From Candidatus Aminicenantales bacterium (lineage in GTDB: Bacteria; Acidobacteriota; Aminicenantia; Aminicenantales; UBA4085): a stretch of DNA of 64,000 nt. Numbering within the stretch: the stretch's first letter is position 1; each line of letters opens with the position of its first letter. Location of the stretch: contig JBEKTZ010000002.1 of assembly GCA_049515535.1 (NCBI GenBank), positions 211,467 to 275,466 of the forward strand, written 5' to 3'. Below the pieces are notes generated by a model, which was given only the letters and a program-made list of their open reading frames with translations, did not search any database and was not told where the DNA came from. The translations under genes and the position numbers were made by a program. This document shows, in pieces, positions 156 to 15,928 of this stretch.

Positions 156-194
156 AAAAAATGAATTCATACTATAGAAGGCACCGGAGGGGAA

Positions 195-380
195 GTCAAC
201 TTTAGGGGGGACCGCTTCGCGTTCCCCCTCCAACGGGCACCGGGAAGACCCGGCCGCCCTGCCCCCCTTCTCGGGCGGGGAATGGACCCCGCTCTGCGAC
301 CAAGGGGGCATGCCCCCTCTGGAACCCCCACGAGCGGCTCCCCGCGGCAAGCCCCGGGGCATATTCGCCGCTCGTCAACT
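195..380. repeat. Structured multi-hairpin element, family A, copy 1
   Basis: Homologous to 15722-15928; five hairpins; bounded by the direct repeat GTCAACT (195-201, 374-380). Confidence 0.8.
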
Positions 381-382
381 GA

Positions 383-593
383 CACGGATGATCCGAAATT
401 GCCGATAAGATGCGACGCGGAATTCCGGGACTTGAACGGAAAATTCATGGGACACAATCCCATTTCGAGAGAAATGGGTTATGTCCCGAATTTTCCGGAT
501 CGTGTACCAGGGAATTCCGCGTCTCACCCAAAAATCCCGATCTCCCAGAGGAACAATAGATCAATCGGCAATTTCGGATAGGATCCATCCGTG
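383..593. repeat. Nested inverted-repeat (MITE/REP-like) element, family B, copy 1
   Basis: Perfect 16-bp IR ATCCGAAATTGCCGAT at 391-406/564-579; inner IRs at 414-426/511-523, 437-446/488-497 and 459-466/471-478 (GAGA loop); homologous to 15472-15616. Confidence 0.8.
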
Positions 594-646: not shown

Positions 647-674
647 TTGACGCCAAGCGCTCCCTTTGTATAAT
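647..674 (+). promoter_or_regulatory. Sigma70-type promoter for the S9 peptidase
   Basis: TTGACG(647-652)-16bp-TATAAT(669-674); RBS AAGGAGG at 711-717. Confidence 0.65.
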
Positions 675-5486: not shown

Positions 5487-5606
5487 GACGAGCCTTCGGC
5501 TCGCCACTTGCCCGTGGCTTATATCCACGGACGAGTACTGCGGAAATGGACCCCCGGGCAAAGCCCGGGGCCCCGGCCGCCGTCGAAAATACGAAATGCG
5601 GCGGCG
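5487..5606. repeat. Intergenic cluster of four GC-rich hairpins
   Basis: CGAGCC-TTC-GGCTCG; CCGTGG...CCACGG; CCCCGGGC-AAA-GCCCGGGG; GCCGC...GCGGC. Confidence 0.5.
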
Positions 5607-15334: not shown

Positions 15335-15471
15335 AATCTCCTTCCTTTCTTGATCTGTCAAAAACCGATCGCTCCTTCAAAAAAATTCCGGACGCCTCGA
15401 GCCAAAATCCCTCTCTATTACGGCAGGTAATTATACATATTTAGAATGGGCAATTCAATAAATCCGGTCCG

Positions 15472-15616
15472 GCCCAAAATTGCCGATAGAAAGCGTTACG
15501 GAATTCCGGGACATGAACCAAATCTCTGGACTTGGTATCGTCTCCCTGGAATTCCGGACTTCACCTCTATTCTTGATCTGATCAGAGAAGAAAGAATCCT
15601 ATCGGCAATTTTGGGC
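15472..15616. repeat. Nested inverted-repeat element, family B, copy 2
   Basis: Perfect 18-bp IR GCCCAAAATTGCCGATAG at 15472-15489/15599-15616; inner CGGAATTCC IR. Confidence 0.8.
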
Positions 15617-15721
15617 TCCGGGCTTGAAATCGGCGGGCAAAAAAAAAGTTTGGAGACCAGGAAATAAAAAAACGGGGTTCGTCGCTGTTTTCAATATGAT
15701 GAAGGGAAAAACTCTGTCGGA

Positions 15722-15928
15722 GTCAATTTGGAGGGGGAACCCGCTTCGCGTTTCCCCCTTCCAACGGGCACACCGTTTTGTACTCTAGGGTACAAAACGG
15801 CGTCGCCCTGCCTCCCTTTCTCGCCCTATGCTCCGCATAGGACTGCGACCAAGGGGGCGGCTCCCCCTTGGATCCCTCTACGAGCGGTTCCCTATGGCGA
15901 GCCATAGGACTTATCAACCGCTCGTCAA
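15722..15928. repeat. Structured multi-hairpin element, family A, copy 2
   Basis: Same scaffold as 195-380; GTCAA at both ends. Confidence 0.8.

Follow-up and report, generated by a model that had tools for sequence, protein, structure and literature searches.

Family A is a gene-less, roughly 190-base hairpin repeat of uncultured Aminicenantes that is inserted at dozens of TTGACT-like sites, and our leading explanation, which we hold to be probable on balance, is that it is a mobile element that travels as a single strand, which an HUH tyrosine transposase, the IS200 type being likeliest, cuts and rejoins in trans. Two copies lie in the window, which is the 64,000-nucleotide stretch of a Candidatus Aminicenantales genome that was analyzed, and they have the ordered scaffold and swapped stems that the original prediction described. 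That prediction left two explanations standing, one of which, a nonautonomous PATE-like element mobilized by an HUH enzyme, is supported by empty and filled sites, by homology to an IS200 end, and by a bias between replication strands.

Family A is a multicopy repeat of one bacterial order

The likeness of the two copies and their folding are far beyond chance (z of −3.25 for copy 1 and −8.27 for copy 2 when RNA folding is compared with shuffled sequences). An nhmmer search with a hidden Markov model (HMM) of the two copies gave 38 matches at E < 1e-5 in the 3.45-Mb draft genome that holds the window (G000), 25 of them near full length; among the 38, one element is counted twice and two are a sister composite, and family A occupies about 35 places in this genome. 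A covariance model built from 37 copies returned 37 matches at E ≤ 1e-10 in G000. The elements are dispersed, have sharp ends, are 160 to 300 nt long, and contain no gene.

The covariance model also matches 13 of the 27 genomes of the taxonomic family and 65 of the 150 genomes of the order, a figure that includes core-only composites, with per-genome copy counts given up to at least 17. One weak match was found in 149 genomes elsewhere in the phylum, and none in the viral contigs, plasmids, and phages that were searched. The exact end motif occurs in records titled Eubacteriales, which we did not count as spread because genome searches show family A within one order, and the idea of a cross-phylum distribution was dropped. 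An Rfam scan at gathering and E-value thresholds, HEARO included, gave no match. Among the papers listed by the literature searches, none describes family A, and none of those listed by the search that named Aminicenantes contains this word.

Ordinary genes surround both window copies, their products being a peptidase, a small hypothetical protein, and an aminotransferase of the HisC type. Next to each copy there is also a member of another repeat family, which has inverted ends (window positions 388–589 and 15466–15629); this family is found at 10 places in the genome, and only these two lie within 300 nt of family A.

Family A is a mosaic of hairpin modules

The informative strand is the minus strand. 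Read on it, family A forms a first stem right from its first base (ACGAGCGG), with a guide-like NATG and an IS200-type hairpin inside; next come a G/C-run hairpin, a pair of swappable hairpins, the far-end hairpin, and a terminal TTG (Table 1).

Table 1. Features of the two family A copies, in window coordinates
Feature	Coordinates	Strand	Remarks
Family A copy 1, 179 nt	197..375	-	Starts ACGAGCGG, ends TTG; from sequence, with boundaries from junction tallies of other copies and empty sites
Target left half TTG, probably host-derived	376..378	-	Inferred from register at other sites
Target right half ACT, probably host-derived	194..196	-	Inferred register and promoter match; with the element's terminal TTG would form a −35-like box
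First (terminal) stem	330..375	-	Arms 367–375 and 330–338, around guide and IS200-type hairpin
Guide tetranucleotide TATG	360..363	-	Placed where IS200 has its left guide, by comparison with tnpA elements
IS200-type subterminal hairpin	340..359	-	One change relative to the hairpin at both L001 ends
G/C-run hairpin	300..322	-	Like the second hairpin of the IS200 left end (HMM matches ~1e-5)
Swappable hairpin module 3, allele x	273..294	-
Swappable hairpin module 2, allele a	235..259	-
Far-end hairpin module 1	201..233	-	With GCGAAGC DNA mini-hairpin at 214–220
Putative sigma70-like promoter	171..199	-	TTGACT, 17 nt, TATAGT; spans the far joint and faces the minus-strand gene to the left; consensus match only
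Family A copy 2, 202 nt	15724..15925	-
First stem of copy 2	15880..15925	-	Around a non-IS inner hairpin allele (15890–15909), with TAAG at the guide position
G/C-run hairpin of copy 2	15849..15871	-
Module 3 of copy 2, allele y	15825..15841	-	GCGGAGC mini-hairpin cap
Module 2 of copy 2, allele b	15766..15808	-
Far-end hairpin module 1 of copy 2, long allele	15728..15764	-	GCGAAGC at 15743–15749

Among the 22 full copies in G000, all four allele combinations are found for each pair of modules 1 to 3 (6, 6, 3, 3; 6, 6, 3, 3; and 4, 5, 7, 6 copies for the three pairs), so exchange between copies is needed. The hairpin modules assort freely among copies, which is shown in the draft assembly G000 only; the copies in G013 are nearly uniform. 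Assembly chimeras are an unlikely source of the mosaics because the shared spacers are short and the same module alleles recur in other combinations in other genera.

A core of 100 to 125 nt, without the IS hairpin, is also found inside at least four other composite repeats. Other repeat families have this core in their loop and are also found without it (G000:C3:68949, C5:56210, and C8:163300; L403, L406–L413, L418–L420, and L016).

Insertion splits TTGACT without target duplication

Comparison of filled and empty sites showed that family A inserts without duplicating its target. L004 is the filled version of a host repeat that is empty, with a single pentamer, in L091 and L092, and three more host repeats (L107, L224, and L225) show the same pattern, again without duplication. 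Orthologous sites free of family A were also found in congeners, those at L083–L090 and L216 being too diverged to place joints at base level. The two flanking pentamers deviate alike in 0 of 50 rows, and a five-base duplication of TTGAC is ruled out by these deviations together with the empty sites.

The joint itself was located by tallying deviations from TTGAC at 84 distinct sites, anchored on TTG within one mismatch. Across the five positions, the hairpin-side word deviates 17, 6, 18, 3, and 2 times and the far-side word 3, 1, 0, 9, and 11 times, a split that is highly significant (Fisher P = 2e-9) and persists without the TTG anchor, where six rows are misregistered (P = 3e-7). In addition, congeners were compared at five copies selected for a far word with an ending other than AC, the flanks being 72 to 98% identical. 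In each of the four readable empty sites, the far-side dinucleotide comes right after the three left bases; the fifth copy is unreadable. Since the tallies and the four empty sites place the joint there, the element spans AC to TTG and its target is TTG^ACT. On the minus strand the joint thus reads TTG^AC, and the canonical IS200 cut would come two bases later. Our initial reading, a canonical cut after TTGAC, is ruled out by the same tallies and informative empty sites, and the cleavage at a TCAA-like motif that had been proposed is not borne out either. The GTCAA words that had been noted at both ends are indeed present in both copies (195–199 and 374–378 in copy 1; 15722–15726 and 15924–15928 in copy 2), but they are hybrids of element and target and not a duplication.

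An abundant small hairpin family, at window positions 5552–5570 and at about 106–110 places in G000, also ends in TTGAC. Its deviations (left −2, 16/110 and −1, 1/110; right A, 5/106 and C, 11/106) point to a joint one base before the end, and the two families may use different registers.

One end of family A carries the hairpin and guide of a local IS200 clade

The IS200-type hairpin of family A is the same as the one found at both ends of L001, a tnpA element of IS200 type on another G000 contig (C9, about 107895–108505) that is apparently inserted in a gene resembling an IS1-family transposase, and as the one in intact tnpA homologs of relatives. Likewise, the family A HMM matches IS left ends over about 70 nt, with E values from 1e-5 to 1e-2. 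Most copies have an NATG guide at the IS position; the guide linker is present in 59 of 85 copies and absent in 26, which lie at separate sites, and the non-IS inner hairpin allele occupies five places in G000. The base after the end pentamer is T in 62 of 64 IS copies and in 61 of 85 family A copies. At the far end, an IS200 hairpin and guide are both missing, and there is no resemblance to any IS end; the hairpin there is unrelated to the IS hairpin and more than 100 nt away from it.

In the IS clade (L023–L052, L171–L187, and L318–L397), the target can be read from the tetranucleotide ahead of the hairpin in 62 of 66 copies at the best of six offsets, while shuffles give a mean of 7.9 and a maximum of 15. 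The rule is followed by 13 of the 15 guide types, a CATG guide predicting TGAC, and this pairing follows the rule described for IS608, which is cut 3′ of the guide-paired tetramer (PMC3201880 and PMC5934647). These 66 natural guide–target pairs of the parent clade are a ready retargeting table for single-strand transposases. At some IS right ends TGAC persists although the guide, GATG or AATG, calls for a different word. Among family A copies, the common guide TATG mostly goes with a TGAC target, which involves a wobble, and guide-less copies exist.

One IS lies in frame within a permease gene, at a place where four homologs have I or V, and this site fits a canonical cut slightly better, a weak hint that the IS itself may use that cut; a search for empty sites of autonomous IS copies found none. 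A 36-nt near-perfect palindrome at G000:C13:38160–38195 consists of two IS200 right ends back to back and precedes a copy of the small hairpin family.

The elements and the enzyme do not track each other across genomes. L001, the sole matching tnpA in G000, has an in-frame stop; the query used found no matching TnpA clade in the single-contig genome G013; and G028 has 11 IS copies and zero family A matches. Overall, the TnpA clade and element-rich genomes show no co-occurrence (2/15 versus 13/135, P = 0.65, in incomplete drafts and assuming that the TnpA and element searches drew the same genome sample).

Strand bias and mini-hairpins point to single-stranded DNA

In G013, the replichores were set by dnaA positions and GC skew samples, with the skew switch 0.1 to 0.2 Mb from dnaA. 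The minus-type strand is on the template of the lagging strand in 20 of the 24 copies (P = 8e-4) that remained of 27 rows when two flank matches and one half-duplicate were left out. Of 17 IS copies from G028 and G041, 15 share this polarity. In G000, it is seen in 28 of 38 matches with 80-kb windows, or 27 of 35 without one double count and two sister elements, and in 24 of 38 with 30-kb windows, which is not significant (P = 0.07); genes are co-oriented at 54% by the same measure. Since an orientation bias on replication strands has been reported both for IS200 (PMC5027513) and for IS91 (PMC3971601), it does not name the mover.

The motif GCGNAGC was found in 119 cores 87 times on the minus-type strand versus 3 times on the other, in three module contexts and with all four bases at N, these copies not being independent. 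Motifs of this type are described as unusually stable DNA hairpins, with a related eight-base form weaker as RNA and related mini-hairpins at phage priming sites (PMC13037366). Departures of the G-T and A-C kind are equal between strands (20 versus 21 column types). Because of the lagging-template bias, the strand-specific mini-hairpins, and this lack of wobble-pair asymmetry, the sequences point to single-stranded DNA, not RNA, as the family A molecule, and selfish DNA, not a new RNA gene, is the likely nature of family A.

Candidate movers

In the mechanism that we favor, the minus strand would be peeled off at the replication fork and close to a circle whose junction is again TTG^AC, and the circle would be pasted into single-stranded TTGACT targets. 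The probable cutting point is the foot of the first stem, where AC makes up the first two paired bases. The core of GCGNAGC-capped hairpins may protect or prime the single strand, and modules would be exchanged by recombination between the many copies. An IS200-type TnpA is our best guess for the enzyme, in view of the hairpin, guide, target word, T at +1, and polarity, but it fails on register, on the second end, and on co-occurrence, and the 26 of 85 copies that lack a guide also speak against it. TnpA is reported to tolerate distant or altered right-end motifs (PMC10055086), and PATEs with a single palindrome have been described (PMC3119063). We also put forward, tentatively and as a possibility only, that the chemistry is an undescribed one, in which an HUH enzyme, either a Y1 TnpA with a shifted register or another transposase, would cut in the middle of TTG^AC at the stem foot, and the exchangeable GCGNAGC mini-hairpin cassette would be a single-strand origin shared by several repeat families.

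The rival that survives best, although we consider it doubtful, keeps the same single-strand element and assigns it to another HUH enzyme, of the rolling-circle IS91 or Rep kind, which would nick TTG^AC, the IS200 hairpin being a captured module. IS91 has unlike ends, makes no duplication, inserts beside CTTG or GTTC, and has a similar tetranucleotide beside a palindrome at its end (bioRxiv 10.1101/2025.01.24.634351), a layout fitted by the NTTG target and RTTG end of family A. The spread of guide-less and non-IS alleles, the 6 of 85 copies that abut another copy's far end, the orientation bias of IS91 (PMC3971601), and the presence of Y2 transposases in 16 of the 27 genomes of the taxonomic family are in keeping with this rival. 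However, 0 of 30 Y2 loci share sequence with family A (best E 0.11), and no autonomous element with family A ends was found in 20 regions around partial matches, at 8 Y1 loci, or in viral contigs, plasmids, or phages, and several families of the order retain the IS200 guide and hairpin. The IS91-family Y2 transposases (L264–L293) share a downstream end motif, and at L041 an IS200 lies inside an apparent IS91-family Y2 gene. A candidate longer autonomous form at an orthologous gap was ruled out, the insert being an unrelated kinase.

A double-strand site-specific recombinase, IS110-like or tyrosine, that inserts across a short core is unlikely. It would explain why a six-base target resembling the element's own junction is split halfway by the joint, and copies are often inserted in other repeats, but mismatched cores are mostly one-sided (20 right versus 5 left), when double-strand exchange would be expected to give both, and single strands are indicated by the strand bias and by the mini-hairpins specific to one strand.

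The other explanation in the original prediction, a structured noncoding RNA family kept for a cellular function, is now very improbable. Its folding is strong, 94.9% of cells are paired, with double changes in 14 of 53 pairs, and copies are mostly intergenic, some of them starting at a stop codon (nine begin within 20 nt of one) and thus expected to be transcribed. The compensatory changes, however, are mostly whole-stem allele swaps, with none in the two best-conserved stems; Rfam is silent, wobble pairs are symmetrical, and the mini-hairpins are of DNA type. Moreover, family A is patchily present, with recent insertions and no fixed gene context, and TnpB was not found in G000. Neither was IscB, in a search whose control was silent too.

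Finally, a REP-like repeat spread by a RAYT transposase is likewise very improbable: a RAYT-like Y1 gene does occur in G000 (L002) and in genus g8, and family A is sometimes inserted in repeats flanking such genes, but the inverted repeats that flank them are unrelated to family A, which has no GTAG foot, and the TnpA-REP enzymes tested in PMC8266576 cut at CT or CA. The RAYT-like transposases at L002, L424, L427, and L428 have a C-terminal extension, and the inverted repeats at their borders are found as gene-less copies too.

Insertion can remodel promoters

Because its target is a −35-like word and its own end rebuilds that word, family A can remodel promoters: a −35 box hit by insertion is rebuilt on the far side, since the element ends in TTG. 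A −10-like TAnnnT stands 16 to 18 nt past the far joint at 18 of 85 sites, copy 1 included, versus 2 to 10 in eleven shifted controls. Crude gene calls make the gene past the far end co-oriented 28 times out of 35; 19 of these cases fall in divergent gaps and are uninformative as to orientation. A near-consensus sigma70 promoter (11 of 12) is also seen at window positions 647–674, ahead of the peptidase gene at 722.

Comparison with known systems

Gene-less IS200 derivatives are already known; the new aspect of family A is that the IS200 guide and hairpin are kept while the joint lies two bases off the textbook cut and a single end is IS-like. Family A is therefore a cheap natural test of the flexibility of HUH transposases or else a pointer to a different mover.

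With IS200/IS605 tnpA elements (the IS608 model; here L001, L024, and L171–L187), family A shares the hairpin, the position of the guide, and the second hairpin of the left end and, with the local clade, also the TTGAC word, the T at +1, and the lagging-template polarity of the active strand (20/24 in G013 and 27/35 in G000). In contrast to these elements, it has no tnpA and no right-end hairpin or guide, it does not insert 3′ of the guide-paired tetranucleotide, the joint being shifted, and it does not co-occur with the TnpA clade.

IS91 resembles family A in its two unlike ends, lack of duplication, target ending in TTG, and terminal tetranucleotide beside a palindrome, but the ends of family A are unlike those of local Y2 elements, there is no preference for C before TTG, and no transposase is present. 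REP/BIME repeats with TnpA-REP are likewise abundant intergenic hairpin repeats of mosaic build, from which family A differs by its greater length, its fixed unlike ends, the missing GTAG foot, and a different cut site.

Family A works like a PATE, yet it departs from what defines such elements in two respects. Like the PATEs of Haloquadratum (PMC3119063) and Geobacillus (PMC10055086), it is short and gene-less, has no terminal inverted repeats, and makes no duplication; it has a near-terminal palindrome related to an IS200/IS605 end and a short conserved terminal word, and it is nested in other mobile repeats. Family A has a single IS-like end, where a PATE would carry a palindrome of IS type with its guide at each end or a fused terminal palindrome close to both, and the cut that the guide defines comes two bases after its joint. 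Also unlike PATEs, it is built on a multi-hairpin core of 100 to 125 nt that is common to other repeat families, and its modules are combinatorial.
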